NCBI GenBank assembly: GCA_902556205.1
Contig: CACDVH010000005.1
Span: 9,091-73,090 of the forward strand
Origin: an uncultured Gammaproteobacteria bacterium
GTDB lineage: Bacteria; Pseudomonadota; Gammaproteobacteria; PS1; Pseudothioglobaceae
Length of the DNA: 64,000 nt
Reading direction: 5' to 3'
Below the pieces are notes generated by a model. It saw only the letters and a list, made by a program, of their open reading frames with translations, did no database searches and was not told where the DNA came from. Positions 32,263 through 58,463 of this stretch are shown here, in pieces (position 1 is the first letter of the stretch; each line of letters opens with the position of its first letter). Position numbers and translations under genes: made by a program.

Positions 32263-33372
32263 CTAGAAGCGAGAACCAGCAAAGCTGATTTGATGATGAG
32301 TGCATGAAAGCCAATCTCTATTAATTTCAATTCCCCAGCCAGGCTGATGAGTCATTTCTAAGTTTCCTTTAACAATCTTAAAATCTGGGGTAAAAATGTT
32401 GTCTTGCCAAGGGTAATAATCAAGGCCCTCAATAGAAAATTCGAGATACTTTCCTGGATTATTTATAGAGCCCATAATGTGTGCAGAAAAAAGCGTTACT
32501 AATGAAAGATTAGCAGCATGCAGAGTCACTGGAATACTCTTTTTTTCAGCCATTTTAGCAACTTCTAATGTTCGAGTAATGCCTCCTAGGTAACAAATAT
32601 CAGGCTGGATAATATCAACTACTTTAGTGTCAATCATATGCCTCCAAACCCTCATGTCATTATCCTGCTCACCACCACTGACATCAATCTCAAGGGCATC
32701 AGAGACTTCTCGAGTCCAGTCTGGTTTCCAATAAGGACATGGCTCTTCAAAATGACTCACGCTATAATCCTGGAGCATATGTCCTACTTCTATTGCTTTT
32801 TTTGGACTGTAAGCACTATTAGCATCAACAAGCAAAGTCACTTTATCACCTAACTGCTTCCTCACCTCTTTGACAATTGATTCAGTTCGACCAGGCCATT
32901 GATCTATGTCATGGCCGCACTCTTTACCAATTCTAAACTTAAAGGCATAGTAGCCATACTTTTCCTTTAACTCCAGAAGTCTCTGGGCTTCAGCTTCAGG
33001 AGAAATTTCGCGCTGCATACTAGATGCATACACTGGAATAGATTTAGGGTTCCCTCCAATAAGCTGACATACACTTTGATTGGCTCTTTTCGCCTTAATA
33101 TCCCAAAGTGCGGTATCTACGCCGCATAGTGCCCTATAAAGATAAGTGCCAGGAAATTTATGTTCTCTTTCCAAAACCTCTCGGTTGACTTCCGGTATGT
33201 TAAGTCCACTCATCCCCAAAACATGGGGGGCAACTTGAAGATGGACTATTTGAGAGGTTATTTCACTGTTATAGGTTGCAGTCTGCCCCCATCCTTCATC
33301 ACCCTCATCAGTTCTCAAACGAACCAATCCAACATATTCATTAGTAAATGTTTCAATGCTAATTATCTTCAT
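32263..33372 (-). CDS. Enolase-superfamily enzyme (mandelate racemase / muconate lactonizing enzyme family)
   Basis: 369 aa. Metal-ligand pattern LLVDANSAY / HFEEPC / SGGEQD, then IIQPDI and TLHAAN (Asp/His-type base). 14-nt overlap with the upstream GMC gene. Confidence 0.8.
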   Translation of the reverse strand: MKIISIETFTNEYVGLVRLRTDEGDEGWGQTATYNSEITSQIVHLQVAPHVLGMSGLNIPEVNREVLEREHKFPGTYLYRALCGVDTALWDIKAKRANQSVCQLIGGNPKSIPVYASSMQREISPEAEAQRLLELKEKYGYYAFKFRIGKECGHDIDQWPGRTESIVKEVRKQLGDKVTLLVDANSAYSPKKAIEVGHMLQDYSVSHFEEPCPYWKPDWTREVSDALEIDVSGGEQDNDMRVWRHMIDTKVVDIIQPDICYLGGITRTLEVAKMAEKKSIPVTLHAANLSLVTLFSAHIMGSINNPGKYLEFSIEGLDYYPWQDNIFTPDFKIVKGNLEMTHQPGWGIEINRDWLSCTHHQISFAGSRF

Positions 33373-34993
33373 GCTTTGTTCTTTGATCCTTCAAAATGAG
33401 ATCGGATGCTTTTTCGCCAACCATAATAGTTGCGGCGTTAATATTACCACAGACTAAGCTCGGAAATATTGACGCATCAACAACTCTCAGACCTTCAATC
33501 CCATAAACTTTAAGGTCACTATCTACAACATTGCTTTTTGGATCAGACCCCATTCTACAGGTACTGGATGGATGAAATACTGTCCATACGGTATCTTTAA
33601 TGTGTTGAATCATTTGCTCATCTGTCTGGCACTGAGGGCCTGGTCGAAACTCCTCTCCAATAACTGGTCTAAAACTATCAGTTTTTGCTAGCTTCCTCAA
33701 AATCTTTACGCCCGCTAATAAGTCTTTGACATCATCCTCATTAGAAAGGTAATTAGGCCTAATGATGGGTGTTTTCAATGGGTCACTGCTTCTCAGATGC
33801 ACGCTGCCTCTTGATCTCGGACTACAATTTGAAATACCCAGAAGCATTGCTGAAAATGGATCTGGACTCATCATTGCACGTCTATCTGGAGACTCCAATG
33901 AGTAGCTGACTGGCGAAAAATAAAGCTGGATATTTGGCTTTTCAAGATCATCTCGAGTTCGAATGAAGCCGCCTGACTGATTGACACTTAAACTGAGCGG
34001 CCCTCTCCTTAAAAAAATATATCGAAGCCCGTGATAAACTTTACCTAGAACTGGTCTTAACTGGTCATTCAAAGTAGGTACTTTACTTTTATAAAAATAA
34101 CTCACACCGAGATGGTCTTGAAGGTTTTCTCCAACTGCAGGGCTATCATGAACTATTGGAACTGAAGCTTGCTCTAAGATATTTTTTGGCCCCACTCCGG
34201 AGAGTTGAAGGAGTTGTGGTGAGTTTATTGACCCTGCACTCAATATAACTTCACGCAATGCAGTAGCCTTGGAAGTCTTGCCTGACTTTAAGTATTCGAC
34301 TCCATACGCCCTTTTATTTTTTATGAGGACTTTTGTTACCCTAGCATTCTTGACAATTGTAAGATTGGATCGGCCCTTTGTTGGCCATATATACGCTCTC
34401 GAAGCAGACATTCGCTGACCCTTGTGGGTAGTAATCTGGTAATTACCCACTCCCTCTTGTTTCTCACCATTCATATCAGGATTTAACTGAATGCCAATCT
34501 CTTGAGCAGCAGATAAAAAATTCTCGCAAAGGAGGTGCAACTGGTTTGTCACTTCAGAGACATTTAAAGGCCCATCACCACCCCTGAAATTATCACTACC
34601 TTTTTGCCAAGATTCCATTTTCTTAAAGTAGGGCAGAACCTCTTTGTATGACCAGCCAGGATTTCCAGCTTCTGACCATTCATCAAAATCCTTTGGATTT
34701 CCTCTGACATAGACCATGGCATTGATTGAACTAGAACCTCCCATTACCTTTCCTCGCGGCCAATAACTGGGCTTATTGTCAGCATCTGGACTTGGCTCTG
34801 TCAAATACATCCAATTGACCTTTTTTTGGTGATAAGTAACTCCATAACCAATAGGCATCTGAATGAAAAAGCGTCGATCTGATCCGCCAGCCTCTATGAG
34901 TAAAACTTTATTCGCAGGGTCTTCACTTAGCCTATTCGCCAAAACACAACCTGCGGAACCTGCACCAACGATAATATAATCGTAATCTTTCAT
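33359..34993 (-). CDS. GMC-family FAD oxidoreductase (choline/alcohol dehydrogenase-like)
   Basis: 544 aa. Contains YDYIIVGAGSAGCVLANRLSED, GGSSSINAM.Y.RG and a C-terminal active-site region HPSSTCRMG....VVD..L.V.G...LRV.DAS.FP. Confidence 0.9.
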   Translation of the reverse strand: MKDYDYIIVGAGSAGCVLANRLSEDPANKVLLIEAGGSDRRFFIQMPIGYGVTYHQKKVNWMYLTEPSPDADNKPSYWPRGKVMGGSSSINAMVYVRGNPKDFDEWSEAGNPGWSYKEVLPYFKKMESWQKGSDNFRGGDGPLNVSEVTNQLHLLCENFLSAAQEIGIQLNPDMNGEKQEGVGNYQITTHKGQRMSASRAYIWPTKGRSNLTIVKNARVTKVLIKNKRAYGVEYLKSGKTSKATALREVILSAGSINSPQLLQLSGVGPKNILEQASVPIVHDSPAVGENLQDHLGVSYFYKSKVPTLNDQLRPVLGKVYHGLRYIFLRRGPLSLSVNQSGGFIRTRDDLEKPNIQLYFSPVSYSLESPDRRAMMSPDPFSAMLLGISNCSPRSRGSVHLRSSDPLKTPIIRPNYLSNEDDVKDLLAGVKILRKLAKTDSFRPVIGEEFRPGPQCQTDEQMIQHIKDTVWTVFHPSSTCRMGSDPKSNVVDSDLKVYGIEGLRVVDASIFPSLVCGNINAATIMVGEKASDLILKDQRTKHEDN

Positions 34994-35097: not shown

Positions 35098-35832
35098 TTG
35101 ACTTCAGACCCAGTAATTTTTCAATCAATATTAATTTTTGGTGCATTCATAGCAGGTATTGTCCAGGGTGCGACAGGCTTTGGAAGTGGAATTGTATTAA
35201 ATGCTTTTTGGCTTCATATTCTTGAGCCATCCGCTGCAATTTCATTAAACATTGTCTCCTGTTTATTTGTCTCTGCACTTCCCATATTCAAGCTTCGTAA
35301 AACTTTAAACTTCTCAAAACTTAAATCATTTGTAACTTTTGGTGTCATTGGAATACCGACTGGATTGCTCATATTAACTTTAACTGAACCAACAATTTTT
35401 AAGACAACAGTTGGGTTTATATTGGTTCTCTTTTCAATCTGGAAATTTAAAAGTAAAAACATTTTAATAAACTTTAAAAGCAGTCCCTCACTTGATAAAT
35501 TGATTGGCTTTATTAGCGGCATATTGGGAGGATTTGCTGCGCTTGGTGGAATACTCCCAACAATCTGGGTTAATCTTCAAAGACTTCCAAAAAATACTCA
35601 GCGTGGGACCTACGAACCATTCATTTTTATTACGAGTATTGCAGCAGTTGTTAGCTTTTATTTTGCTGGGTTTTTGAATTTAGATATTTTTTATTATTTT
35701 CTTAAGGTTTTTCCAGCCTTGATTATTGGGTCTCTTATTGGTGTCAAGATTTATTCATTTATTGATGAAGACCTTTTTCAAAAGGTTATTTTGGGGCTTA
35801 TTTTTTTTGCAGGGTTAGTATTATTATTTTGA
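35098..35832 (+). CDS. TauE/SafE-family (DUF81) anion exporter
   Basis: 244 aa, about 8 TM. G-rich TM motifs (GATGFGSGI; GGFAALGG). TTG start as given by the ORF track. Confidence 0.7.
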   Translation: MTSDPVIFQSILIFGAFIAGIVQGATGFGSGIVLNAFWLHILEPSAAISLNIVSCLFVSALPIFKLRKTLNFSKLKSFVTFGVIGIPTGLLILTLTEPTIFKTTVGFILVLFSIWKFKSKNILINFKSSPSLDKLIGFISGILGGFAALGGILPTIWVNLQRLPKNTQRGTYEPFIFITSIAAVVSFYFAGFLNLDIFYYFLKVFPALIIGSLIGVKIYSFIDEDLFQKVILGLIFFAGLVLLF

Positions 35833-35970: not shown

Positions 35971-36987
35971 ATGAAACTAATAAATAAATTATTAGCTGTA
36001 ACAGCTATTTCGGTTGCTCTAGTGCCAGGAGTTGTGAGCGCTGACTGCGGAAAAGCAAGACTAGCTGATTTTGACTGGAGTAGTGCTAACATTCACACGG
36101 CAATTGCTGGCTTTATCTTAGAGCACGGCTATGGTTGCGATGTTTCTGTAACAAAAGGAAGCACAACACCAATTATGGCTGCACACTATGATGGACAGCT
36201 TGATGTTGTGACTGAGCTTTGGTATGACAACATTAAAGATACTTATGATAGTCATGAAGCAGCAGGAACAGTAAGAAACCTAGGAATTAATACGCCTGAC
36301 TCTCAGCAAGCATTCTACGTTGATAGAGCGACTGCTGATAAGTACAATCTTAGAAATGTGCTAGATATGAACAGCCCAGAAATTGCTGCGTTATTCAGTG
36401 ATCCAGAAAACCCTTCAATGGGAAGAATGACAAGTTGTATTGGTGGCTGGACTTGCTACACAATTAACCTTGTTAAACAAAAAGCTTACGGATTAGATAA
36501 ATACTACACTAACTTTGATCCAGGTTCAGGTGGAGCACTTGATGCGGCTATTGCTGGTGCGTTTGCTAAAAAGCAGCCAATCTTTACTTACTATTGGGCG
36601 CCAACAGGTTTGATGGGCAAAGTTGATTTAGTAAGACTAGCTGAGCCACCATTTAACGCCGAGTGCTGGGCATCAATGCAAGTTGTTGTTGAAGATATCA
36701 AGGCTAATGGAACAGATGCATGGAAGCCAACTTGTGGAGTTGAGTATAGAGACATGTCATTAGACAAGTCAGTTCTTGCCTCATGGGCTGATTCTCATCC
36801 TGATGAGACTGCATTCATCGAAGCATATAGCATACCAACTGCACAAGTCAATAGACTGCTTGCATTCTATGAAGATGAGTCAGATGGTGATATGGAGCTA
36901 ACTGCAATGGAATACTTATCCAATGATGACACATGGAAAGCTTGGGTGCCAGCAGACGTAGCTGCTAAGGTATCTGCAGCTCTATAA
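35971..36987 (+). CDS. Quaternary-amine (glycine betaine/proline betaine/carnitine-type) ABC transporter substrate-binding protein, ProX-like
   Basis: 338 aa. Signal peptide, then an aromatic-rich OpuAC/ProX-type fold (DWSSANIHT, ELWYDN, GGWTCY, YYWAPT). Followed by ProW/ProV-type genes. Strong RBS AGGAGAG. Confidence 0.8.
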   Translation: MKLINKLLAVTAISVALVPGVVSADCGKARLADFDWSSANIHTAIAGFILEHGYGCDVSVTKGSTTPIMAAHYDGQLDVVTELWYDNIKDTYDSHEAAGTVRNLGINTPDSQQAFYVDRATADKYNLRNVLDMNSPEIAALFSDPENPSMGRMTSCIGGWTCYTINLVKQKAYGLDKYYTNFDPGSGGALDAAIAGAFAKKQPIFTYYWAPTGLMGKVDLVRLAEPPFNAECWASMQVVVEDIKANGTDAWKPTCGVEYRDMSLDKSVLASWADSHPDETAFIEAYSIPTAQVNRLLAFYEDESDGDMELTAMEYLSNDDTWKAWVPADVAAKVSAAL

Positions 36988-37001
36988 GTTAGATTACATA
37001 T

Positions 37002-37032
37002 AAAAAAGAGCCCACTTGTGGGCTCTTTTTTT
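37002..37032 (+). terminator. Intra-operon rho-independent terminator/attenuator after the SBP gene
   Basis: GAGCCCA (37008-14) pairs with TGGGCTC (37019-25), with a 4-nt loop. Flanked by A6 and T7 tracts. Lies between the SBP stop (36987) and the permease start (37049). Confidence 0.75.
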
Positions 37033-37048
37033 AAATAGAATAAGCATC

Positions 37049-38050
37049 ATGATAAGAAAATTACTCACCTACTTTACTTTTCCCATAATCTTTGTTTGGC
37101 TTTTAGTTGTAAGCTATAACTCATCTAAAAGAAAGCCCGACAGCGCTATGGAACTTTTAACTGATCCCAGTTGGCTTTATGATTGGCCAAAATGGTTAGA
37201 TATTCCATTAATGAAGTGGATCAATGATGGCTTCAAGGTCTTCAATGAAAAGTATGGAATTTACTTTGAAGTAATCAATGACTTTCTTCTTGGTGCAATC
37301 CTGTCACTCAAAAAATTCTTAATTGTTTTGCCATGGCCAGTGGTCATCGCACTTGTTGTTGCAATTGTTTTCTTCTCGAGTGGAAGAAAACTTGGAACAA
37401 CCGTTTTTGTAGGAATCTGTACATTTTTTATTGGCTTCCTTCATCCCAAGTTTTGGGATAAAGCCATAGAAACCACCTCAATCATGATTATTGGAATTCT
37501 CATATGTATCATTATTGGTATTCCTCTAGGTATTGCAATGGCAAGAAATAACAAACTTCGAAATGCAATACTCCCTGTGCTCGATTTAATGCAAACAATC
37601 CCAAGCTTTTGCTATCTCATTCCAGGAATTATGCTCTTTGGACTTGGAGCAGTTCCAGCGATTATTGCAACCGTTATTTATGCAGTACCCCCACTAGTTC
37701 GTCTAACTGACCTAGGAATCACCTTAGTTGATACAGAAGTCATCGAAGCGGCTGAAGCCTTTGGGGCTAGCAAAAGACAGAAACTATTGGGCGTTCAGCT
37801 ACCACTCGCACTTCCAAATATTATGCAGGGAATTAACCAGTGCACGATGATGGCACTAGCCATGGTTGTTATTGCATCTATGATTGGAACGAGAGGCCTG
37901 GGCGATGAAGTTCTACTTGGACTCCAACAGTTGAACGTTGGAAAAGCTACCGAAGCTGGACTTGCAATTGTTCTTCTGGCAATCGTTTTAGATCGAATTA
38001 CCCAGGCTTATGGTAAAAAAATTCAAGATAGAAACCAACCACCAAAATAG
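37049..38050 (+). CDS. proW: Glycine betaine/proline-type ABC transporter permease
   Basis: The EAA-loop IEAAEAFGASKRQKLLGVQLPLALP and 6+ TM segments. Start moved to ATG 37049, because the ORF-track TTG at 37016 lies inside the terminator loop. Confidence 0.88.
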   Translation: MIRKLLTYFTFPIIFVWLLVVSYNSSKRKPDSAMELLTDPSWLYDWPKWLDIPLMKWINDGFKVFNEKYGIYFEVINDFLLGAILSLKKFLIVLPWPVVIALVVAIVFFSSGRKLGTTVFVGICTFFIGFLHPKFWDKAIETTSIMIIGILICIIIGIPLGIAMARNNKLRNAILPVLDLMQTIPSFCYLIPGIMLFGLGAVPAIIATVIYAVPPLVRLTDLGITLVDTEVIEAAEAFGASKRQKLLGVQLPLALPNIMQGINQCTMMALAMVVIASMIGTRGLGDEVLLGLQQLNVGKATEAGLAIVLLAIVLDRITQAYGKKIQDRNQPPK

Positions 38051-38059
38051 ATTCCTATT

Positions 38060-39094
38060 ATGTCGAAAATTGAAATAAACAATATTTATAAAATATTTGG
38101 TCCTAACCCTCAGCAAATAATGCCAATGGTAAAAGATGGAGCATCTAAAGAACAAGTGATGGAGGAAACAGGTCACACCGTTGGTCTTGATAACGTCTCA
38201 TTATCTATTGAAGAAGGGGAAATCTTTGTCTGTATGGGGCTTTCTGGCTCAGGAAAGTCAACACTAATTAGGCACATTAATAGGCTAATTGATCCTACTG
38301 CAGGAGAGGTTCTTGTTAACAATGTTGATGTTTGTAGTTTAGACGAAAAAGAAATATTAGAGTTCAGAAAAAAAACCATGAGTATGGTATTCCAGCGATT
38401 TGGACTATTTCCTCATAAGACGATTATTGAAAATGTTGCCTATGGTCTAGAGATTCAAGAGGTTCCTGAAGATCAAAGACATGAGATTGCACAGGGCCAA
38501 ATCAAGGCTGTTGGTCTTGAGGGCTTTGAACACCAGTATCCAGCCCAACTCTCTGGTGGAATGCAGCAAAGGGTTGGTCTAGCAAGAGCACTTGCAACTA
38601 ACCCCGAAATTCTTTTAATGGATGAAGCATTCAGTGCATTAGACCCGCTTATAAGAAGTGAAATGCAGAATCAATTGGTCGAACTTCAAGCCAAACTCAA
38701 AAAAACTATTGTCTTCATAACACATGATCTTGATGAATCTCTTAAACTAGGTGATCACATTGGTATTCTCAATGGTGGAAGACTGGTTCAGGTTGGAAAG
38801 CCGGAAGATATTATCTTAAATCCTGCTGATGATTACGTTAAAGCTTTTGTAAAAGATGTCAACCGCTCTAAAGTTCTTCGAGCAAGAACCATTATGACTA
38901 AACTGGATAAGTTTGATAAGTCATCAGTTAATCCATCATCAACATATAAGTATGATGAGGATACCTATATTGAAGATATTGTTCCTAAGGTATTAAAGGA
39001 CAGGTCAACAATTGAGGTTATTGATAAAGAAGGTATGACTACTGGATTTATCACATCTGATGAACTCTCAGTTGCACTAACTAAAACGAAATAA
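38060..39094 (+). CDS. proV: Glycine betaine/proline-type ABC transporter ATPase
   Basis: 344 aa. Walker A GLSGSGKST, signature LSGGMQQRVGLARAL, Walker B ILLMDEAFSALD, and a short CBS-like tail. Confidence 0.92.
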   Translation: MSKIEINNIYKIFGPNPQQIMPMVKDGASKEQVMEETGHTVGLDNVSLSIEEGEIFVCMGLSGSGKSTLIRHINRLIDPTAGEVLVNNVDVCSLDEKEILEFRKKTMSMVFQRFGLFPHKTIIENVAYGLEIQEVPEDQRHEIAQGQIKAVGLEGFEHQYPAQLSGGMQQRVGLARALATNPEILLMDEAFSALDPLIRSEMQNQLVELQAKLKKTIVFITHDLDESLKLGDHIGILNGGRLVQVGKPEDIILNPADDYVKAFVKDVNRSKVLRARTIMTKLDKFDKSSVNPSSTYKYDEDTYIEDIVPKVLKDRSTIEVIDKEGMTTGFITSDELSVALTKTK

Positions 39095-39101
39095 ACCCTC
39101 A

Positions 39102-39875
39102 TTGAAATCTGCGAGCAAAAATATAATTATTTCAGCAGCGGCAGATGGAATTGGCTGGTGCATTGCCAAGTCCTTGTTAGACCGGGGATACACAGTTTAT
39201 GCTTCTGATATAAATCAAAAAAAAATTAATGAACTAAATCATCATCCTCTAATCAATACAAGATTATTTGTTGACAACGTAGATGCTGCAAATGCAGATT
39301 CAGTAAATAATTATTTTGAATCTTTAAAATTATCAAGCATTGATGGCTTGATTAATAATGTTGGTATTGCAGGACCCACTGGAACAATGGAGGAAATATC
39401 AATAGATGACTGGAATCAAACTATAGAAACGAACTTAAATAGTCATTTTTATTTTACTAAGCAGGCTATACTACTTTTAAAGAAAAATAAAGGTGGGTCA
39501 ATTGTCAACCTATCTTCAACAGCTGGAATCTTTGGGTTTCCTTTGAGAACGCCCTATGCAGCATCTAAATGGGCAATTATTGGAGTCACTAAATCCTTGG
39601 CTATGGAGCTAGGAAAATTCAATATACGAGTCAATGCAATCTGTCCAGGTTCGGTGTCAGGAGATCGAATTAATAGGGTGATTGAGGCAAAGGCAAAATC
39701 ACTTAAAACTCCTGTTAGTGAAGTCAAAGAAGATTTTGAGGGTATGGTTTCACTGAAATCTTTCGTTGACAAAGAAGATATTGCTAATATGGCAACATTT
39801 CTTTTATCTGACCAAGCGAAGAAAATATCCGGTCAAGTCATGACCGTAGATGGCAATACTGAAAGGATGGACTAA
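39102..39875 (+). CDS. Short-chain dehydrogenase/reductase (SDR)
   Basis: 257 aa. Contains NNVGIAG and the catalytic SS...YAASK. TTG start. Last gene of the plus-strand transporter unit. Confidence 0.85.
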   Translation: MKSASKNIIISAAADGIGWCIAKSLLDRGYTVYASDINQKKINELNHHPLINTRLFVDNVDAANADSVNNYFESLKLSSIDGLINNVGIAGPTGTMEEISIDDWNQTIETNLNSHFYFTKQAILLLKKNKGGSIVNLSSTAGIFGFPLRTPYAASKWAIIGVTKSLAMELGKFNIRVNAICPGSVSGDRINRVIEAKAKSLKTPVSEVKEDFEGMVSLKSFVDKEDIANMATFLLSDQAKKISGQVMTVDGNTERMD

Positions 39876-39900: not shown

Positions 39901-40545
39901 TTAATGAAGCCCTGCAATATACTGAGATAGAGCATCTATTTCTTCATTAGTCAGACCCATAGCAACATTATTCATCATCTCATTGACTCGCTCTACACCA
40001 TCAGAGCCTGTCTGTTTATTGATGGAATACTGACGGAAAGCCTTTAGCTGTGATGCAGTGTACTCAGCGTGCTGCGCTGCAACTGCTGGGAATCCTGCAG
40101 TTGGTATCCCCTCGCCTTTGGCACCATGACATGCAATACAAGCAGTCGTTTGAGTTTCCATTTTACCGCCTACATAAATTTTTCTACCAAGTTCAATTTG
40201 TTCAGCTGAACCCTTAGCGGAGTTTTCACTAATTGTTTGGATTGAGTAGTAAGCAGCAATATCTTCCATATCTTGGTCAGAGAGTAATGAGGCGACACCA
40301 GCCATCATTGCATTGTTTCTCTCACCAGATTTAAAATGCTGAAGTTGCTTGACAAGATAAGCCTCTCCTTGACCAGCAAGCTTTGGAAAGTTTGGGATCG
40401 TACTATTTCCGGCTAGACCATGGCAGCCCATACATGTAGCAGATTTAACTTGGCCTGCTTCTGCATCTCCTGCAGCCATTGAAGGACTAACTAGCGTGGT
40501 CATTAGTATGGAAGCTAAAATAATAAGCGTTTTTTTCATTCTCAA
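39901..40545 (-). CDS. cc4: Diheme cytochrome c4
   Basis: 214 aa. Signal peptide, two heme sites (CMGCH, CIACH), and two Met-containing distal-ligand segments (ERNNAMM; VNEMMNNVA). Confidence 0.9.
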   Translation of the reverse strand: MRMKKTLIILASILMTTLVSPSMAAGDAEAGQVKSATCMGCHGLAGNSTIPNFPKLAGQGEAYLVKQLQHFKSGERNNAMMAGVASLLSDQDMEDIAAYYSIQTISENSAKGSAEQIELGRKIYVGGKMETQTTACIACHGAKGEGIPTAGFPAVAAQHAEYTASQLKAFRQYSINKQTGSDGVERVNEMMNNVAMGLTNEEIDALSQYIAGLH

Positions 40546-40628: not shown

Positions 40629-40952
40629 CTATCTTTGCGGATCTTGAATAGAGAGATATTCTGCTATCGATCTCTCAAAACCTTCAGCCATTGGAGCCAT
40701 TGCATTCATATATGAATTTTGACGCTGACCCGACTGAAAATATTCAAGTTGCTGGATGATCCATTCGACATCTTTGCCTGCAAGAGAGGGAATTGCTTCG
40801 TCATTAGAGCGTCCATTTTCACCGTGGCAACTTGCACATCCTAGTGCACCATACATTGCCTCACCCTCACTATTGGCATGAATACTAATAGAAAAAGTGG
40901 CTAAAACAAACACGATAATCGTATGAATAAATTTTGTCATAGTTCTAAGCAC
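40629..40952 (-). CDS. Monoheme class I cytochrome c
   Basis: 107 aa. Signal peptide, CASCH heme site, and a downstream NSYMNAMAPM Met ligand region. Confidence 0.85.
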   Translation of the reverse strand: MLRTMTKFIHTIIVFVLATFSISIHANSEGEAMYGALGCASCHGENGRSNDEAIPSLAGKDVEWIIQQLEYFQSGQRQNSYMNAMAPMAEGFERSIAEYLSIQDPQR

Positions 40953-41010: not shown

Positions 41011-41796
41011 TTATTGACCTTTCCATTCAGGTGATCGTTTTTCTGAAAAGGCAATTGGCCCCTCCTTAGCATCCTCAGAATTTAGCATTTTATGATAGGC
41101 TTCAATTTTTCCAGATCGCATCAATTCATAAGCCTCCTCTAAGCCCATCATTTCAGTTGATCTCATAACAGACTTTATGGCTGCCAAAGAGAGTGGAGCT
41201 GAATTTGAAATCTGATGAGCCCACTCAAGAGCATCATTAATTAAATCATCTTGATCACAACTTCTATTAACCAGACCATAATGTTTTGCCTCTTCAACAC
41301 CCATCCTTCGGCCAGTCATAAGCATATCCATTGCGACTGGCTTTGGTAAGCGGCGTGGAAGTCTCAAAACACCACCACTGTCTGGGATAAGACCTAAAGT
41401 AGCCTCAGGTACAAAAAATTCTGCACTAGTTGAAGCAATTATCAGATCTGCAGCGAGTGCCAACTCAAACCCACCACCAACTGCTAATCCGTTCACTGCA
41501 GCAATTACAGGTTTATTTAGATCCCATAACTCTGTCAGACCCGCAAAACCACCGGGGCCAAAATCAGCATCAATCGCTTCCCCTTCAGAAGCGGCCTTTA
41601 AATCCCATCCTCCACAAAAAAAACGATCTCCAGCGCCAGTAATAACCGCAGCTCTAAGGTTATAATCATCCCTGAACCGAATAAAGGCTTCTCCAAGTTC
41701 ATAGCTCGTTTTTACATCGATAGCATTAGCTTTTGGACGATCCAAAGTGATTAAAACAACCTCGCCATGGATCTCATAATTTACTGAATCATTCAT
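41011..41796 (-). CDS. caiD: Carnitinyl-CoA dehydratase-like crotonase (CaiD family)
   Basis: 261 aa. Tracks E. coli CaiD, as I recall it, over the full length: [48 protein letters not shown]...[31 protein letters not shown] and SEDA.EGP.AF.EKR.P.WKG. Confidence 0.8.
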
Positions 41797-41811: not shown

Positions 41812-43869
41812 TTATTCTGAGTATAGCTTGATAAGTGTATCAGCTGCAACAACACCGTCTGAGCCTTTTAACACCAATAATGGATTAATGTCCAACTCTT
41901 CAACTGCGTTTGTACGGATTAATTCAATTACTGACATTACAGAATCTATTACAGCTTCAATATCTCCCTTCATACCGCCTCTGTAGCCCTCAAGTAGCTT
42001 GAAGACTTTTAAATTTGATAAAGCCTGACGGATATCTTCTCTACTAACAGGCAACATGAGAACAGAACTATCTTGCAAAAGTTCAACATATATACCGCCA
42101 CCGCCAACAATGATATGCTTCCCAAAGGTAGGATCATAGTCCATACCAATGATGAGTTCGCAAATAGGACTTTCAATCATTTTTTCAATTAAAAGCTCTG
42201 GGCTAATTTTGAATAAGTCATCACAAGCTTCTTTCAGAGTTTTCACATTTTGAATATTCAACCTAACACCATTCAATTCAGTCTTATGTGCTAATTTTGC
42301 ACCCGACACCTTAAGCGTTACTGGAAAGGAAATCTCCTCAGCAGCCTTTATCGCTTCAGTCACATTCTCAACAAGACATCCCATAGGTATTGTTACCCCA
42401 TATTTCTTTAGTAACTGTTTGCCTTGATACTCTGTTAATTGCTGCTTAGATTTATGTTCTGAACTATTTCTCAAAACCTCTAAATCAGGACTTGAATTAC
42501 TTGAAAAAGCCCTCCCAATTTTATAGGAGTGATTGAGCGCTTTTAAACATACATCTAACCCGACCATAGGAGCAATACCCAAACTTAGACACTCCTCTAT
42601 GATTCTTTTTGGCATACAGTCTGCCATAGATGCCAGTACGATTGCTTTTTCACTCGTGCCAGAAAGAGCATCTGAAAGAGCAAATAAAGTTGCGTCCCAG
42701 TCCTTTTGTTCCGATTCCTTAGACTTAGGCCAGTCCAAAAGCAGCATTGTTGCAGCAAATTGGCCACTCATCATGGCACTAAAGCATTCTGACGTTCTCT
42801 TTCTATCGCCCCAAATAAACGTATGGTAATCAAGCGGGTTATCTACCTCAACATAATCGTTTAGCGTCTGCTTAACTTTGGCCTTGTGTGATGAGCTGAG
42901 TGATGGAAAATTAATCTCTAAGCCATCAATTAAATCAGCCATCATTCCTGCCTCTCCCCCTGAGCAACTCATTGATGCGACGCCGCCATGTTCAATGACA
43001 CCCAATACATTGATAAGTTTAAGTGTTTCTAGAAACTCTGGAACAGTCTCTACTCTGGCTATACCAAGTCGCTCAAAAAGGGCATTATATAATTCATCTG
43101 AACCTGTTAATGAGCTTGTGTGGCTAAGAGCAATCTTTGCAGAGGCTTTTGTTTTTCCTGATTTAATAGTAATGATTGGAATTTTCATCATAAGAGCCCT
43201 TTTAGCTGCAATATCAAACGACTTAATGTCAGAAATACCTTCAATGTGGAGGCCAATCGCATTGACTCTTGAGTCATCCAACATCGCATGAATAATGTCT
43301 GCAATATTAGTATTTGTTTGATTTCCAAGAGTAAACATATAGGCAATTGGAAGACCGGAGGACTGCATAGTCATGTTCAGACCTATATTTCCGCTTTGTG
43401 TTATTATTGCAACACCTTCAGATACCGGTTCACAGCCATGAACATCTGGCCAAAGAGCAATCCCATCAAGACTATTTATAAAGCCATAACAATTTGGACC
43501 TATTAGCGGCATTCCAGAAGCAGCTTTCACTAATTGTTGATTGCGCATCAAACCCTCAGCGCCGACCTCTCCAAATCCAGAGGCATACAAAACAGCACCG
43601 CCACCGCCCATAGACTTCAGGTCAGATACAACCTCAATGGCAGACTCTGCATTAACTGCAATAAAAGTAGCGTCTGGAACTTCTGGCAAATCTTTAATGT
43701 CTTTAAAACATTTGATACCTTCAAGTGACTCTAGGTAAGGGTGAACTGCCCATATTTGATGACTATATCCTAATTTAAGAGATTCTCTAATCGCAAAATT
43801 TGCACCTCGATTGCCAACCACAGCGATTGACTTCGGAGAGATTAATCGATGCAAATTGCTTTTGCTCAT
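41812..43869 (-). CDS. NDP-forming acyl-CoA synthetase superfamily protein (CoA-binding + succinyl-CoA-synthetase-like + ATP-grasp); substrate unknown
   Basis: 685 aa. N-terminal CoA-binding Rossmann (SIAVVGN), a phosphohistidine-loop-like ALSHTSSLTGS, NPLDY, and a C-terminal ATP-grasp half (KQLLKKYGV..P, FPV.LK, ...HK...GGV.L). This is the architecture of acetate--CoA ligase (ADP-forming) and DddX. Confidence 0.8.
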   Translation of the reverse strand: MSKSNLHRLISPKSIAVVGNRGANFAIRESLKLGYSHQIWAVHPYLESLEGIKCFKDIKDLPEVPDATFIAVNAESAIEVVSDLKSMGGGGAVLYASGFGEVGAEGLMRNQQLVKAASGMPLIGPNCYGFINSLDGIALWPDVHGCEPVSEGVAIITQSGNIGLNMTMQSSGLPIAYMFTLGNQTNTNIADIIHAMLDDSRVNAIGLHIEGISDIKSFDIAAKRALMMKIPIITIKSGKTKASAKIALSHTSSLTGSDELYNALFERLGIARVETVPEFLETLKLINVLGVIEHGGVASMSCSGGEAGMMADLIDGLEINFPSLSSSHKAKVKQTLNDYVEVDNPLDYHTFIWGDRKRTSECFSAMMSGQFAATMLLLDWPKSKESEQKDWDATLFALSDALSGTSEKAIVLASMADCMPKRIIEECLSLGIAPMVGLDVCLKALNHSYKIGRAFSSNSSPDLEVLRNSSEHKSKQQLTEYQGKQLLKKYGVTIPMGCLVENVTEAIKAAEEISFPVTLKVSGAKLAHKTELNGVRLNIQNVKTLKEACDDLFKISPELLIEKMIESPICELIIGMDYDPTFGKHIIVGGGGIYVELLQDSSVLMLPVSREDIRQALSNLKVFKLLEGYRGGMKGDIEAVIDSVMSVIELIRTNAVEELDINPLLVLKGSDGVVAADTLIKLYSE

Positions 43870-43874
43870 TTTAA

Positions 43875-45032
43875 CTACTCAAAGGGTCTAAGCAAAGATC
43901 TAGAGATAATGTGCCTTTGTATCTCGCTCGTTCCATCCCATATTCTTTCTACTCGATGATCTCTCCATATTCTCTCAAGGGGAAGCTCATCCATCAGTCC
44001 CATGCCACCTAAAATTTGAATAGCCTCATCAGAAATCATTGCCAGAACCTCAGTTGCTTTAAGTTTTGCCATGGCGGCATCACTATTGGTCATCTGACCT
44101 TGAGAATCCTTCCATGCAGCTTTCAAAGTCAGTAATTCTGCTGCATTGAGCTCCATTGACATATCAGCAAGTTTAAATGAAACCCCTTGGAATTTGCCTA
44201 TCGTTTGACCAAATTGTTCTCGTGTTGCAGCCCATTCTGTTGCAATCTGCAAAGCCCTTTCCGCTCTACCAAGACACATCGCAGCAACGGACAATCGAGT
44301 CGCACCCAACCATTCATTAGCCACATCAAAACCATGGTCAACCTCACCGAGAACTTGTGATTCATGCACTCTACAGTTATCAAAATTAAGTATAAAGTTA
44401 TGGTAACCCCTATGAGAAACACTGTTGTAGCCGGGCTCAACTGAGAAGCCTGGCGTACCCATATCGACTAAAAAGCTTGTAATCTTTTTTTTCTCACCCC
44501 TTGGAGTTTGCTCAACACCCGAAGCAGCAAATAATATGACATAGTCAGCCATGTCCGCATGACTAATAAAATGCTTAGAGCCATTAATGACAAAAAATTC
44601 ACCATCTCTCTCCGCTTTACATTTCATTGAGCGAACATCAGAGCCAGCATTTGGCTCCGTCATCGCAAGACAGTCAACCTTTTCTCCCCGAATTGTTGGT
44701 AGCAAATATTCATCGATCTGTGATCCTTTACATGCCAATAAAATATTACTTGGACGAGCTACAATATACTGAAGTCCAAAATTTGCTTTTCCCAATTCTT
44801 TTTCTAATAGGCATAATGTAAGAGAATCTAACCCACCACCACCATGAGTTTCAGGCATATTGCATGCATAAAGTCCACTTTCTATTGATTTTTGCTTTAT
44901 CTGCTCTACAACTGAATCTTCTATTTTATTGTTCTTTTCAACCTCCTCTTCAAAAGGGTAAAGCTCTTTTTCAACAAAACTTTTGACAGAGTCAATAATC
45001 ATTTCTTGTTCGCTTGTAAGTCCAAAATTCAT
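43875..45032 (-). CDS. Acyl-CoA dehydrogenase
   Basis: 385 aa. Contains MTEPNAGSD, FISHA, QFG..IG.FQ and the C-terminal R...I.DGTSEIQR catalytic-Glu region. Confidence 0.92.
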   Translation of the reverse strand: MNFGLTSEQEMIIDSVKSFVEKELYPFEEEVEKNNKIEDSVVEQIKQKSIESGLYACNMPETHGGGGLDSLTLCLLEKELGKANFGLQYIVARPSNILLACKGSQIDEYLLPTIRGEKVDCLAMTEPNAGSDVRSMKCKAERDGEFFVINGSKHFISHADMADYVILFAASGVEQTPRGEKKKITSFLVDMGTPGFSVEPGYNSVSHRGYHNFILNFDNCRVHESQVLGEVDHGFDVANEWLGATRLSVAAMCLGRAERALQIATEWAATREQFGQTIGKFQGVSFKLADMSMELNAAELLTLKAAWKDSQGQMTNSDAAMAKLKATEVLAMISDEAIQILGGMGLMDELPLERIWRDHRVERIWDGTSEIQRHIISRSLLRPFE

Positions 45033-45058: not shown

Positions 45059-45583
45059 TTATTTGATCTCCATTACTCGCCCTTTTTGCTTTGGTGAGGC
45101 TAGCTTTTTATGCTCACTCCAAATCTTTTGCAGTATTGTAAATACTGATTGATCTATCTCGCTTGCTTTTGCTTTATTCATATCTACATGAACGAGCATC
45201 TGTTCGGTTGTTGCCAATAATTCTCCACTTTCTCCATGAAACATTTGATGAAAAATGTGAAGTCTCTTTGAGTCAAGACCTAATATTTGAGTAGAAAACT
45301 GTAATGGCTCATTCTCTGATACCTCTAAATAATAATTAATATGCGTCTCTACCGTATAGAAAGACTGTCCCGCAAGCCTATAATCATTATCAATCCCTAT
45401 ATATTGAAAAAGTGCATCTGAGGCATCACCAAAAGCATAAAGATAGAATGACTCGCTCATATGTCCATTGTAGTCAATCCAATCTGTGTGAACTTTGGCA
45501 CTATAAAGGACAAGAGGCTTATCTAATTTATCACTCTCTGAATAATACTGATACTCTCTTGTTAGATATATTTCATTGTCCAT
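45059..45583 (-). CDS. Hotdog-fold (4HBT-type) acyl-CoA thioesterase, betainyl/carnitinyl-CoA-thioesterase-like
   Basis: 174 aa. WIDYNGHMSESFYLYAFGDASDALFQYIGID..YR......YTVETHINYY resembles thioesterases found with carnitine dehydrogenase (CdhB-type). Family assignment is from memory only. Confidence 0.6.
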   Translation of the reverse strand: MDNEIYLTREYQYYSESDKLDKPLVLYSAKVHTDWIDYNGHMSESFYLYAFGDASDALFQYIGIDNDYRLAGQSFYTVETHINYYLEVSENEPLQFSTQILGLDSKRLHIFHQMFHGESGELLATTEQMLVHVDMNKAKASEIDQSVFTILQKIWSEHKKLASPKQKGRVMEIK

Positions 45584-50266: not shown

Positions 50267-51052
50267 CTAAAATATAAGCACCATAGCTGCTAAAAAACCT
50301 AAGAAAACTGAAAATCCTTTTTTGAGTTTTTTACTGTCCATTTTATGAGTCACTTTTGCTCCAAGTGGTGCAAAAAAAATGCTGGCAGCAACTATTGCAA
50401 AAAGAGCCTCAAAGTTCACAAAGCCAATCCCTCCTGTTGGAAGAGATTGTGAGGATCCTGCAATCATAAACCCAATACTTCCAGCAATCGCAATTGGCAT
50501 ACCTACCGCTGCAGATGTGGCAATGGCATTTTTAATTTTTACATTGTTATAAACTAAAAATGGAGTGGTCATTGTACCGCCACCAATCCCAACCATAGCT
50601 GAAACTAGTCCTATCACATAGCCTACAACAGACCAAATCCATCTAGATAAATTATCGGCATGGCTTGAAGCACTGACGCCAAACCACATAATCAATGCAA
50701 CGGTTATTTCAAATAAAGCAAAGAAAACACGTAAAAAATCAAAGCTTAAATATTTAGCAAGAATAGCACCACTGTATGAACCTAATAAAATCGTTGGCGT
50801 TAGTTTTACAAAGTTTCTCCACAGTATAGCTCCATGACGATGATGGGCATATAGACTAGAAATAGAGGTAAAGACTATTGCGGCCAATGCCGTACCTATT
50901 GCAGTATGCATTAAAATGGATTGGTCAATGGATGGTGCCAACAGGTATAGCAGTACTGGAACAATTATTAGGCCTCCCCCAACACCTAGAAGCCCTGCAA
51001 CAAAACCCGAAAAGGCACCAAGAAGAATAAATAGGATTAACGCTTCACTCAT
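50267..51052 (-). CDS. TauE/SafE-family (DUF81) anion exporter, second copy
   Basis: 261 aa, about 8 TM. Repeated GxGGG motifs (GLLGVGGGLIIVP; VGIGGGTMTTP). Confidence 0.75.
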   Translation of the reverse strand: MSEALILFILLGAFSGFVAGLLGVGGGLIIVPVLLYLLAPSIDQSILMHTAIGTALAAIVFTSISSLYAHHRHGAILWRNFVKLTPTILLGSYSGAILAKYLSFDFLRVFFALFEITVALIMWFGVSASSHADNLSRWIWSVVGYVIGLVSAMVGIGGGTMTTPFLVYNNVKIKNAIATSAAVGMPIAIAGSIGFMIAGSSQSLPTGGIGFVNFEALFAIVAASIFFAPLGAKVTHKMDSKKLKKGFSVFLGFLAAMVLIF

Positions 51053-57773: not shown

Positions 57774-58463
57774 TTATTTAGAGAGGCTATTTTCGATTTC
57801 TTCCCAGTCCTCAAAATGAAGAACTTGACATGGCGAATTGATATTTTCAAGCCAGGCAAATATAGATATAAAAGGTTGCTCGTAAACTCGAGCAGCATGT
57901 CGCTCTCCAGGTTCATTCCAAACTAATGAACCGGCTGGATAGTCTTTCCATTCTCCCAATTCAAATCGCCAACCTGATTTATCTGAAAGGTTTAGATATA
58001 ACTCTGGCGCATCATGCTTGTGATCACGATAGAGCGTACGTGGTCCAAGCATGAACACGCCTAGGAGAAAGTCATCGCTTTGATATCCACAAGAATTAGG
58101 GCCAATTAGCAGAGTATGCAGGTTGCAATTTTTGTAACCTGGCCCAAGATTTGCTCCAGGTTGATAATATTGAGAATTATCTTCCAACCAAACAAGATCA
58201 TTCTTAGCTGAATAAAGGCAATTTGCAATCTCATTAAGCTGCTGTGCTTTTATTTCATAAATTGCTTGATTTAAAACCTTTTCATGTCTCGTTCCTTTAG
58301 GCTTAACATCAACAAGTTTATCATCGGAAAGATCAATTTTTTCTAACTTTCTCAATGTCATTTCAACTCCTGACATTTCTACTCTATGCTTTTCAAGATA
58401 ACTAATAATGGATCTAACTAGTGCCTTGACTCTAATCTTTCTATCCGTCATCACTTTTTTCAT
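57774..58463 (-). CDS. dddL: Cupin-type DMSP lyase-like protein (DddL-like)
   Basis: 229 aa. Cupin metal/catalytic signature H-K-H-D-A-P-E-L-Y (HxHxxxExY), and a further His 41 residues after the first His (PGERHAARV). This spacing matches cupin DMSP lyases (DddK/L/Q/W), and the length and long N-terminal extension fit DddL. No alignment was run. Confidence 0.55.
   Translation of the reverse strand: MKKVMTDRKIRVKALVRSIISYLEKHRVEMSGVEMTLRKLEKIDLSDDKLVDVKPKGTRHEKVLNQAIYEIKAQQLNEIANCLYSAKNDLVWLEDNSQYYQPGANLGPGYKNCNLHTLLIGPNSCGYQSDDFLLGVFMLGPRTLYRDHKHDAPELYLNLSDKSGWRFELGEWKDYPAGSLVWNEPGERHAARVYEQPFISIFAWLENINSPCQVLHFEDWEEIENSLSK

Follow-up and report, generated by a model that had tools for sequence, protein, structure and literature searches.

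A DddX-related ligase of a marine Pseudothioglobaceae bacterium is probably the gamma-butyrobetaine--CoA ligase of a four-gene carnitine operon

Which substrate does the fused acyl-CoA ligase of an uncultured marine gammaproteobacterium of the Pseudothioglobaceae activate? The gene is found at 41812..43869, on the minus strand, of the stretch of 64,000 nucleotides that we analysed and hereafter call the window (assembly GCA_902556205.1, contig CACDVH010000005.1, positions 9,091 to 73,090). A sequence-only reading of this DNA had proposed that its 685-aa product is a ligase/lyase of the DddX type, which would ligate CoA to dimethylsulfoniopropionate (DMSP) and then release dimethyl sulfide (DMS). 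The superfamily and the idea of an onium substrate were right, but the clade was wrong and the substrate probably so. Our analysis suggests that the protein is probably an ADP-forming gamma-butyrobetaine (GBB):CoA ligase, orthologous to BcoAB of Sinorhizobium meliloti, and that it would be the committing enzyme of a four-gene operon leading from GBB to L-carnitine.

The ligase gene lies in a conserved operon

The ligase gene is real and conserved. Its open reading frame (ORF), running from an ATG to a stop codon, encodes an ADP-forming (NDP-forming) acyl-CoA ligase with fused alpha and beta parts, of the family that includes BcoAB and the enzymes called 'DddX-like'. Three Pfam domains score far above their gathering cutoffs in the translation: CoA_binding_2 (PF13380, residues 13-132, 43474..43833 on the minus strand, as are all parts of the ligase given below; 46 bits for a cutoff of 22.8), the flavodoxin-like Succ_CoA_lig (PF13607, residues 152-285, 43015..43416, 115.6 bits), and ATP-grasp_5 (PF13549, residues 473-682, 41824..42453, 166.7 bits). 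They agree with the CoA-binding and ATP-grasp architecture, shared with DddX, that had been described earlier. A homology search returned near-identical proteins from numerous marine contigs labelled Candidatus Pseudothioglobus or Thioglobus, and loci with 81-87% identity come from genomes of the PS1 clade/SUP05, which makes the host a Pseudothioglobus-like gammaproteobacterium. The G+C content of the window is ~38%. An antisense TTG-initiated ORF of 137 codons (42878-43291, plus strand) lies inside the ligase gene and is almost certainly a by-product of the opposite coding frame.

The ligase is the third gene of a compact minus-strand block made of a 4HBT_2 thioesterase, an acyl-CoA dehydrogenase (ACAD), the ligase, and a crotonase, with gaps of 26, 5, and 15 bp. 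These neighbours are present as previously described. They had been interpreted as enzymes that could handle acryloyl-CoA and release the product, but they are instead orthologues of enzymes of the carnitine pathway. The ACAD (385 aa, 43875..45032), which has the N, M, and C Pfam domains of its family, shares 62.5% identity, from end to end, with its counterpart in the S. meliloti carnitine operon, and is 80-82% identical among Thioglobaceae, Oceanospirillaceae, and Aestuariispira. Its top NCBIfam model is the acryloyl-CoA reductase AcrC (272 bits for a cutoff of 640), and it also matches the model of CaiA. The crotonase (261 aa, 41011..41796) matches best the model of the crotonobetainyl-CoA hydratase CaiD (395 bits for a cutoff of 500, with 241 for the runner-up family) and has 48% identity with the gene annotated as caiD in S. 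meliloti. The only NCBIfam match of the thioesterase (174 aa, 45059..45583, Pfam PF13279) is to the C-terminal part of carnitine 3-dehydrogenase (positions 336-491), and it shares 44% identity with residues 334-490 of the protein of S. meliloti in which carnitine dehydrogenase and thioesterase are fused. The four window proteins are collinear with products of the S. meliloti operon and homologous to them over their full length. When the whole window was searched by tblastn with the S. meliloti BKACE and carnitine dehydrogenase, only the thioesterase was found. A scan of the operon for promoters and terminators gave no more sites than shuffled sequence and was uninformative. Downstream of the crotonase, on the same strand and with gaps of 58 and 83 bp, lie two cytochrome c genes (39901-40545 and 40629-40952), one dihaem-like and one monohaem, whose placement is kept in Thioglobaceae loci and not outside them.

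The association between these genes is widespread. We searched 61 related loci by tblastn with the window proteins and found the thioesterase-ACAD-ligase-crotonase block throughout the Thioglobaceae. The same block, with ligases only 38-55% identical, is present in Oceanospirillaceae/Njordibacter, Aestuariispira, Nisaea, and Shimia. Among 141 loci of the family, 132 encode an ACAD immediately upstream of the ligase and 123 have the gene of a CaiD-like hydratase immediately downstream; the exceptions are mostly contig ends. Carnitine dehydrogenase and BKACE are absent from the Thioglobaceae flanks that we examined. They are found in other taxa. In Aestuariispira insulae, whose ligase is 54% identical to that of the window, the genes directly before the block encode a regulator of the GbdR/CdhR type, a cleavage enzyme of the BKACE family, and a complete fusion of carnitine 3-dehydrogenase and thioesterase. 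The order in S. meliloti is GlxA regulator, BKACE, carnitine dehydrogenase, ACAD, ligase, caiD, and ABC transporter, and that of Rhizobium etli CFN42 p42c is GlxA regulator, BKACE, carnitine 3-dehydrogenase, ACAD, ligase (WP_011427754.1), 'carnitinyl-CoA dehydratase', and ABC transporter. In Pseudooceanicola algae p202 we observe a regulator, ACAD, ligase, dehydratase, BKACE, and carnitine dehydrogenase; on the Ruegeria pomeroyi DSS-3 megaplasmid, a GlxA regulator, ACAD, ligase, DJ-1, and carnitinyl-CoA dehydratase. One metagenome-assembled genome (locus L084) has the ligase between the ACAD and the CaiD-like hydratase, next to a carnitine 3-dehydrogenase, and lacks the full set of BKACE and GlxA/GbdR-type regulator.

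Some of these loci have peculiarities of their own. In S. meliloti Ak57 (CP090106.1, locus L082, 7956-10046) the ligase gene is frameshifted into frames of 490 aa and 286 aa and is missing from the gene table; the record, of 3.7 Mb, is labelled 'plasmid pSymB' and has a chromosome-like size and content. The gene between the ligase and the carnitinyl-CoA dehydratase of R. pomeroyi (locus L080, 11011-11616) is of the DJ-1/PfpI family and is absent from the other operons examined. Downstream of the operon of Candidatus Njordibacter sp. Uisw_039 (locus L027, 10864-17996) we found a GbdR-like regulator, another small thioesterase of the carnitine-dehydrogenase type, a betaine-homocysteine S-methyltransferase, two MttB-family genes (non-Pyl, trimethylamine methyltransferase-like), and a GcvT-like aminomethyltransferase, which suggest a larger island for the demethylation of quaternary amines.

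For S. meliloti, Bazire et al. (2019, J Bacteriol 201:e00772-18) reportedly described five enzymes catalysing seven steps from GBB to glycine betaine, with anabolic genes adjoining the catabolic ones. The S. meliloti operon that we recovered has, in agreement, five enzyme genes. BcoAB of this species has been used, with ATP, CoA, and Mg, as a 'gamma-bb:CoA ligase' and was treated as one gene (PMC8364193), while SM2011_c01638 is the carnitine dehydrogenase and also converts betainyl-CoA to glycine betaine (PMC12482172). From the gene order, the cofactor needs, and this reported pathway, we strongly infer that bcoAB is the ACD-type gene (ADP-forming acyl-CoA synthetase) located between the ACAD and caiD.

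The public name of the window protein, 'acetate--CoA ligase family protein', points to a different function, that of a generic ACD acting on acetate or short-chain acids, in either direction, for energy conservation. It does match the NCBIfam models of acetate--CoA and hydroxy-acid CoA ligases with 259-306 bits, but these scores are far below the curated cutoffs of 1200-1300, and no NCBIfam family scores above its cutoff. Acetate-forming ACDs are also not characterised by the conserved aromatic cage described below, nor by an operon in which the ligase is strictly linked to an ACAD, a CaiD-like hydratase, and a thioesterase like that of carnitine dehydrogenase. We thus regard such a function as very improbable. 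Although unannotated, the gene is nothing unusual within its family, which has been characterised, and 'predicted gamma-butyrobetaine--CoA ligase' would be a better name for it.

The ligase branches outside the DddX clade

We built a neighbour-joining tree of 38 sequences (670 columns, 100 bootstraps) rooted on an archaeal 4-hydroxybutyrate-CoA ligase. DddX of Psychrobacter and three Sporosarcina proteins form one clade with a bootstrap of 100/100. The ligase is not among them, contrary to the placement that had been expected. It belongs to the sister family, also with 100/100, together with other gammaproteobacterial ligases, the rhizobial carnitine-operon ligases, the enzyme of S. brevis discussed below, and diverse other representatives. 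The carnitine-operon ligases of this clade include those of R. etli p42c, S. numidicum, and P. algae. Within the family, the proteins of Thioglobaceae, Njordibacter, and Aestuariispira form one subclade and those of Roseobacter and rhizobia another. The window ligase is 53.7% identical to that of Aestuariispira, 43.6% to that of R. etli (WP_011427754.1, 585 bits), and 44.1% to the ligase in the bcoAB position of S. meliloti (over the intact 460 residues).

Searches for similarity gave a concordant picture. The best match of the ligase among PDB sequences is DddX (7CM9, 250 bits), closely followed by archaeal hydroxy-acid CoA ligases (232 and 220 bits). However, in a search of 1.8 billion representatives at 50% identity, at least 150 clusters match it with 392-813 bits, and DddX is therefore not a near relative. 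The pairwise BLASTP alignment with DddX has 28.7% identity over 686 residues (248 bits, coverage of ~98%), with an E-value of 8e-77 that would weaken in a database search. Homologues of DddX were defined in RefSeq by an identity >30%, a coverage >70%, and E < 1e-75 (PMC8163506), and the ligase misses these published thresholds by its identity.

We then compared the residues involved in catalysis. DddX of Psychrobacter sp. D2 (Li et al. 2021; PDB 7CM9) is a DMSP lyase that depends on ATP and in which His292 is the phospho-histidine and Trp391 and Phe435 make cation-pi contacts with the sulfonium (PMC8163506). Glu432 is the proposed general base, the mutant E432A being inactive, and Tyr181 and Asp208 are minor contributors (PMC8163506). 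Residues 37-724 of DddX were taken from the printed alignment, and the PDB numbering is that of PMC8163506. In our L-INS-i alignments, the swinging-loop phospho-histidine of the ligase, His250 (motif SH250TSS inside the Succ_CoA_lig domain, codon 43120-43122), falls in the column of His292. It is invariant in the 150 family representatives, but as a trait of the whole ACD superfamily it is not discriminating. The family signature loop NPLDYHTFIW (residues 344-353, 42811..42840) includes Thr350 and Trp353, and a second aromatic loop, WPKSKESEQKDW (residues 380-391, 42697..42732), has Trp380 and Trp391 as its aromatic positions. The first of these four positions is Thr in 132 of the 150 representatives, that of Trp353 is Trp in 145, and position 391 is aromatic in 133. 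Trp353 of the ligase occupies the column of DddX Trp391, and its Trp391 that of Phe435. These cation-pi columns are equally kept in carnitine-operon ligases and so do not separate DMSP from trimethylammonium substrates. On this comparison, the Trp residues shared with DddX are most readily interpreted as a cage that binds onium groups, in sulfonium as well as trimethylammonium substrates, which would explain how members of the family can accept DMSP.

The rest of the DddX active site is different. The sequence-only reading had proposed that the phospho-histidine, the sulfonium-binding aromatic residue, and the catalytic base of DddX be checked in the ligase: the first two are present, but the column of the base Glu432 holds Gln388, and Tyr181 and Asp208 are replaced (by Trp or Asp, Leu or Met, depending on the alignment). 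Across the family, the Glu432 column contains Q/P/A/V/D/E/I/L/F. In contrast, Tyr181, Asp208, and Glu432 are invariant in 4/4 sequences of the DddX clade (Psychrobacter and the three Sporosarcina), and the Sporosarcina proteins all retain Tyr181, Asp208, Trp391, Glu432, and Phe435, within 'GDHEFDF'. The ligase has a 4-residue insert, YHTF, before the Trp that is lacking in DddX, and lacks the 5-residue insert SEVSN that is a DddX feature. The motifs NPLDYxTxxW and D[WFY]P...W are common to the ligase and its counterpart in the bcoAB position of S. meliloti.

The genomic contexts differ as well. The cluster of Psychrobacter includes dddT (a BCCT transporter), dddC, and dddB (PMC8163506). None of them adjoins the ligase, whose neighbours are the thioesterase, the ACAD, the CaiD-like crotonase, and the cytochromes c. 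Conversely, neither an ACAD nor a CaiD-like hydratase is encoded next to dddX in the three Sporosarcina loci. By its phylogeny, residues, and context, the ligase is an ADP-forming CoA ligase but is not an orthologue of DddX.

A predicted route from gamma-butyrobetaine to carnitine

The four genes can be arranged into a route resembling beta-oxidation. ATP would phosphorylate His250, from which the phosphoryl group would pass to the carboxylate of GBB; attack of CoA on the acyl-phosphate would then give GBB-CoA, ADP, and Pi. The trimethylammonium head of the substrate may be held in an aromatic cage made of Trp353, Trp380, Trp391, and possibly Trp140, each with a putative role. The ACAD, a predicted gamma-butyrobetainyl-CoA dehydrogenase, would oxidise GBB-CoA to crotonobetainyl-CoA, the crotonase, a predicted CaiD-like crotonobetainyl-CoA hydratase, would hydrate the latter to L-carnitinyl-CoA, and the stand-alone thioesterase, predicted to act on L-carnitinyl-CoA (betaine-acyl-CoA), would release L-carnitine and CoA. 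GBB would probably be supplied by the OpuAC/ProWV-type importer encoded nearby.

One could conceive that the operon acts on another onium or zwitterionic carboxylate able to pass through a single round of chemistry resembling beta-oxidation, such as delta-valerobetaine, beta-alanine betaine, or homologous sulfonium acids, and produces a 3-hydroxy acid other than carnitine. The ligases of Thioglobaceae, Njordibacter, and Aestuariispira do form their own subclade, in which Trp takes the place of Phe at position 380 and the cage is thus slightly different, and the gammaproteobacterial loci have a stand-alone thioesterase and lack carnitine dehydrogenase and BKACE. The betaine-homocysteine methyltransferase and the two MttB-family methyltransferases beside the Njordibacter operon also point to a broader metabolism of quaternary amines. 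However, Aestuariispira is in the same subclade and has the complete carnitine operon. The identity of the ACADs, 80% between the window and Aestuariispira and 62.5% with S. meliloti, argues for the same acyl-CoA substrate, and the hydratase is specifically CaiD-like. A substrate of this sort therefore seems quite unlikely to us, and we keep GBB as the predicted one.

DMSP as a possible side substrate

Work on the marine Roseobacter group has described 'DddX-like' DMSP-cleaving enzymes, including those of N. cionae (WP_188673365.1) and S. brevis (WP_093923351.1) (Wang et al. 2026; PMC13543886). For the N. cionae enzyme, the Km is 1.43 mM and the kcat 0.42 per second with DMSP; it yields acryloyl-CoA, and its knockout cuts DMS by ~50% (PMC13543886). 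Mutations of His251, Thr351, Trp354, and Trp392 lower the activity on DMSP, and these enzymes have no Glu base (PMC13543886). Members were recognised by >60% identity and >90% coverage relative to the enzyme of N. cionae H-12, and genes of both kinds, dddX and dddX-like, were counted in Tara Oceans using hidden Markov models (HMMs) with E <= 1e-30 (PMC13543886). The article mentions neither carnitine nor any betaine, and apparently none was tried as a competing substrate (PMC13543886).

In our tree, the window ligase falls in the same family as the S. brevis member of this group. His250, Thr350, Trp353, and Trp391 correspond to the four mutated residues with a constant offset of 1 and the same spacing (100/3/38); these residues are general to the whole BcoAB family. 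The ligase is 39% identical to the S. brevis enzyme (493 bits, ~99% coverage), which belongs to a different subclade, and it almost certainly falls short of the >60% identity to the N. cionae enzyme. A scan of Roseobacter alignments led us to the locus of S. brevis DSM 11443, the product of which was confirmed as WP_093923351.1 by an exact-sequence look-up. There the gene is flanked by those of an ACAD and of a CaiD-like hydratase (which scores 328 bits on the CaiD model), 78% and 80% identical to the ACAD and CaiD of the S. meliloti operon. Over its N-terminal 442 aa, the S. brevis enzyme shares 60.4% identity with the ligase in the bcoAB position of S. meliloti; it is 54.5% identical to that of R. 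etli. The full set of regulator, BKACE, carnitine dehydrogenase, ACAD, ligase, and hydratase is present in a Roseovarius locus, where the ligase has 63% identity to that of S. brevis. The 'DddX-like' enzymes and BcoAB thus appear, from sequence and synteny, to be one family encoded in one conserved operon.

Two further cases concern the limits of this group. A protein of Rhodobacteraceae bacterium HTCC2150 (P0157), whose numbering exactly matches the published H251/T351/W354/W392, has Glu at residue 389, in the column of DddX Glu432; this is an isolated case in a varying column. The ACDs of Sulfitobacter / Pseudosulfitobacter plasmids were considered as a DddX-like group and rejected, for they lack the Thr/Trp/Trp residues and lie beside CaiB/BaiF transferases. 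The example on the Sulfitobacter pontiacus plasmid pDSM110277_a (WP_240790883.1, locus L083, 7977-10091) is ~30% identical, and belongs to another ACD subfamily without this signature; its neighbours encode CaiB/BaiF CoA-transferases, ACADs, and an IclR regulator, with a split alpha/beta ACD pair nearby.

The kinship raises the alternative that the physiological role of the window ligase is that of a 'DddX-like' DMSP ligase/lyase. DMSP-CoA would be split into DMS and acryloyl-CoA, the crotonase would hydrate the latter to 3-hydroxypropionyl-CoA, from which the thioesterase would release 3-hydroxypropionate, and the ACAD would interconvert acryloyl-CoA and propionyl-CoA. The S. brevis enzyme, of the same family with maximal bootstrap and with the same core operon, releases DMS from DMSP in vitro. 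The conserved His/Thr/Trp/Trp residues, the acryloyl-CoA and the loss of DMS recorded for the N. cionae homologue, and the AcrC model as top match of the ACAD, below its cutoff, go in the same direction, and the cupin DMSP lyase and the betaine-type importer of the organism imply that DMSP is available to it. Yet the operon partners are orthologous to enzymes of the carnitine pathway (62.5% identity for the ACAD, 48% for the hydratase, and 44% for the thioesterase), and in many genomes they are joined into operons that also encode carnitine dehydrogenase and BKACE, two enzymes with no part in the catabolism of DMSP. The ACAD has no needed role after DMSP-CoA. The genes dddT, dddB, and dddC are not adjacent, unlike in the DddX cluster, and the family has no conserved base at the position of Glu432. 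The Km for DMSP is millimolar, with betaines apparently untried as competitors, and the S. brevis enzyme is only 39% identical and belongs to a different subclade. We find it unlikely that DMSP cleavage is what the window ligase is for.

The logic of the operon likewise suggests that DMSP cleavage is not the main role of the ligase, and a side reaction is plausible by analogy with the characterised enzymes. DMSP is a shorter sulfonium analogue of GBB, and the ligase may ligate it to CoA, after which DMSP-CoA would lose DMS by beta-elimination. This would explain the activity on DMSP of a relative in the family. The thioester would acidify the alpha-proton and DMS is a good beta leaving group, so that, on chemical grounds, the elimination may need no dedicated base, which fits the absence of a conserved Glu. 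Whether this goes on in the cell, in Pseudothioglobus and in the whole family of bco-operon ligases, with DMSP-CoA losing DMS, is more doubtful, and we put it forward as a tentative possibility.

Several points weigh against GBB as the substrate. The identification of the recovered S. meliloti ligase as bcoAB is indirect, and the recovered copy is frameshifted. The identity of the window ligase to the characterised rhizobial enzyme is only ~44%, and the function of the gammaproteobacterial members is predicted from sequence. We found no carnitine dehydrogenase, BKACE, or GlxA-type regulator in the window or in the examined Thioglobaceae flanks; the carnitine may serve as an osmolyte or cryoprotectant or be catabolised further. 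Finally, one has to account for the 39%-identical S. brevis enzyme cleaving DMSP in vitro, for the kinetics and the knockout of the N. cionae enzyme (PMC13543886), and for an organism that, having a cupin DMSP lyase, meets DMSP. All in all, an ADP-forming GBB:CoA ligase is still what we consider probable.

Other genes of the window

A betaine-type ABC importer is encoded on the plus strand at 35971..39094 and includes an OpuAC substrate-binding protein (143.8 bits with the Pfam model), a ProW/ChoW permease, and a ProV/ChoV ATPase, the latter assignments being supported by NCBIfam models of choline/glycine betaine transport. The importer announced by the earlier reading is thus present, and it is of the OpuAC/ProW/ProV type. 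It is syntenic with the operon in many Thioglobaceae loci, and in rhizobia, too, an ABC transporter comes after the operon. It is probably the uptake system for the quaternary-amine substrate of the operon, an association that we regard as tentative. The short-chain dehydrogenase/reductase at 39102-39875 was considered as an orthologue of the one found upstream of the S. meliloti operon and rejected (28% identity).

A choline-dehydrogenase-like GMC oxidoreductase (33359-34993, minus strand) is encoded ~6 kb from the operon and overlaps the gene of an MR/MLE-family enzyme (32263-33372, minus strand). It is 44-45% identical to the GMC enzymes located beside the same operon in R. pomeroyi (locus L080, 13456-15060) and P. 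algae (locus L081, 1909-4743), and may be functionally linked to the operon. A GMC enzyme is also present in the metagenome-assembled genome mentioned above (locus L084, 12208-13863), and its association with the operon recurs across classes. The MR/MLE proteins were discarded as shared companions of the operon because they are only 23% identical. Between the GMC oxidoreductase and the importer lies one of two genes for TauE/SafE-family membrane proteins (a family of sulfite or organosulfonate exporters), at 35098-35832 (plus strand); the other is at 50267-51052 (minus strand).

The window also has the DMSP genes on which the earlier proposal leaned. The cupin DMSP lyase (229 aa, 57774-58463, minus strand) is supported by the Pfam profile PF16867, DMSP_lyase (76 bits for a cutoff of 27), as had been noted. 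The ligase described as DmdB-like is indeed an AMP-forming acyl-CoA ligase (58441-60027, minus strand), with PRK06187 as best model, but it is only loosely DmdB-like, as it scores 383 bits on the model of this methylmercaptopropionate (MMPA)-CoA ligase for a cutoff of 822. The start of the lyase gene overlaps the end of the acyl-CoA ligase gene by 23 bp. Together they look like a separate, conventional DMSP-cleavage module, perhaps a lyase plus the activation of acrylate or MMPA.

Implications for marine quaternary-amine and DMS cycling

If our assignment is correct, Pseudothioglobus, a cosmopolitan and genome-streamlined marine group, has with Njordibacter a predicted route from GBB to carnitine. 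It further supports the view that polar and mesopelagic bacterioplankton use quaternary amines as important currencies. The SAR11 bacteria that co-occur in the Arctic have a separate island for GBB, carnitine, and glycine betaine (PMC12421898).

The analysis also connects two bodies of work, neither of which cites the other, that of the 'DddX-like DMSP lyases' (2026) and that of BcoAB (2019). Were DMSP accepted in the cell, the very abundant heterotrophs of the SUP05/Arctic96BD-19 group would release DMS by an ATP-dependent route that has gone unrecognised. In either case, the 'DddX-like DMSP lyases' of the literature would represent GBB-CoA ligases moonlighting on DMSP, and if this is true, the ocean-wide counts of 'dddX plus dddX-like' made with HMMs at 1e-30 largely count genes of the carnitine pathway. 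The Pseudothioglobus ligase would pass this cutoff and probably adds to the dddX-like counts, since it scores 493 bits against the S. brevis enzyme and is found in very many marine contigs. If DMSP cleavage is a side reaction, the estimates of marine dddX-like abundance need to be re-examined; if it is physiological, operons of the carnitine type add to the flux of DMS.

Comparison with known systems

Among the known systems are the archaeal ACD I enzymes, which include 4-hydroxybutyrate- and 3-hydroxypropionate-CoA ligases (PDB 8WZU, 9Y43, 4XYL). They share with the window ligase the superfamily, the mechanism by a phospho-histidine, and the domains. However, their scores are only 220-232 bits, they lack the aromatic loops after NPxD, and their domain order or subunit arrangement differs. 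DddX has the same superfamily, the same domain order, the phospho-histidine, and both cation-pi aromatic positions, and represents the sister clade. The 'DddX-like' enzymes are closer, as they share the family, the His/Thr/Trp/Trp residues, and the ACAD-ligase-CaiD-like core operon, and like the window ligase they have no Glu at the position of DddX Glu432.

The cai system of Escherichia coli uses the same chemistry of CoA esters to link GBB, crotonobetaine, and carnitine, and the window crotonase is nearest to the CaiD model. In E. coli, activation is by the AMP-forming ligase CaiC and the CoA-transferase CaiB, CaiA is a crotonobetainyl-CoA reductase, and the system works anaerobically in the direction of GBB. 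In contrast, the window has activation by an ADP-forming ligase and release by a thioesterase, a combination that fits the aerobic direction, from GBB to carnitine.

The BcoAB operon is the system most similar to that of the window. It differs in that the rhizobial thioesterase is part of a dehydrogenase-thioesterase fusion whereas that of the window is stand-alone, in that BKACE, carnitine dehydrogenase, and a GlxA-type regulator are not found nearby in the window, and in that the ABC importer is here of the OpuAC/ProXWV type. The host is also different, being a genome-streamlined marine gammaproteobacterium. The two ligases nevertheless share the fused three-domain ADP-forming architecture, a clade with 100% bootstrap, and the gene order ACAD, ligase, CaiD-like hydratase.

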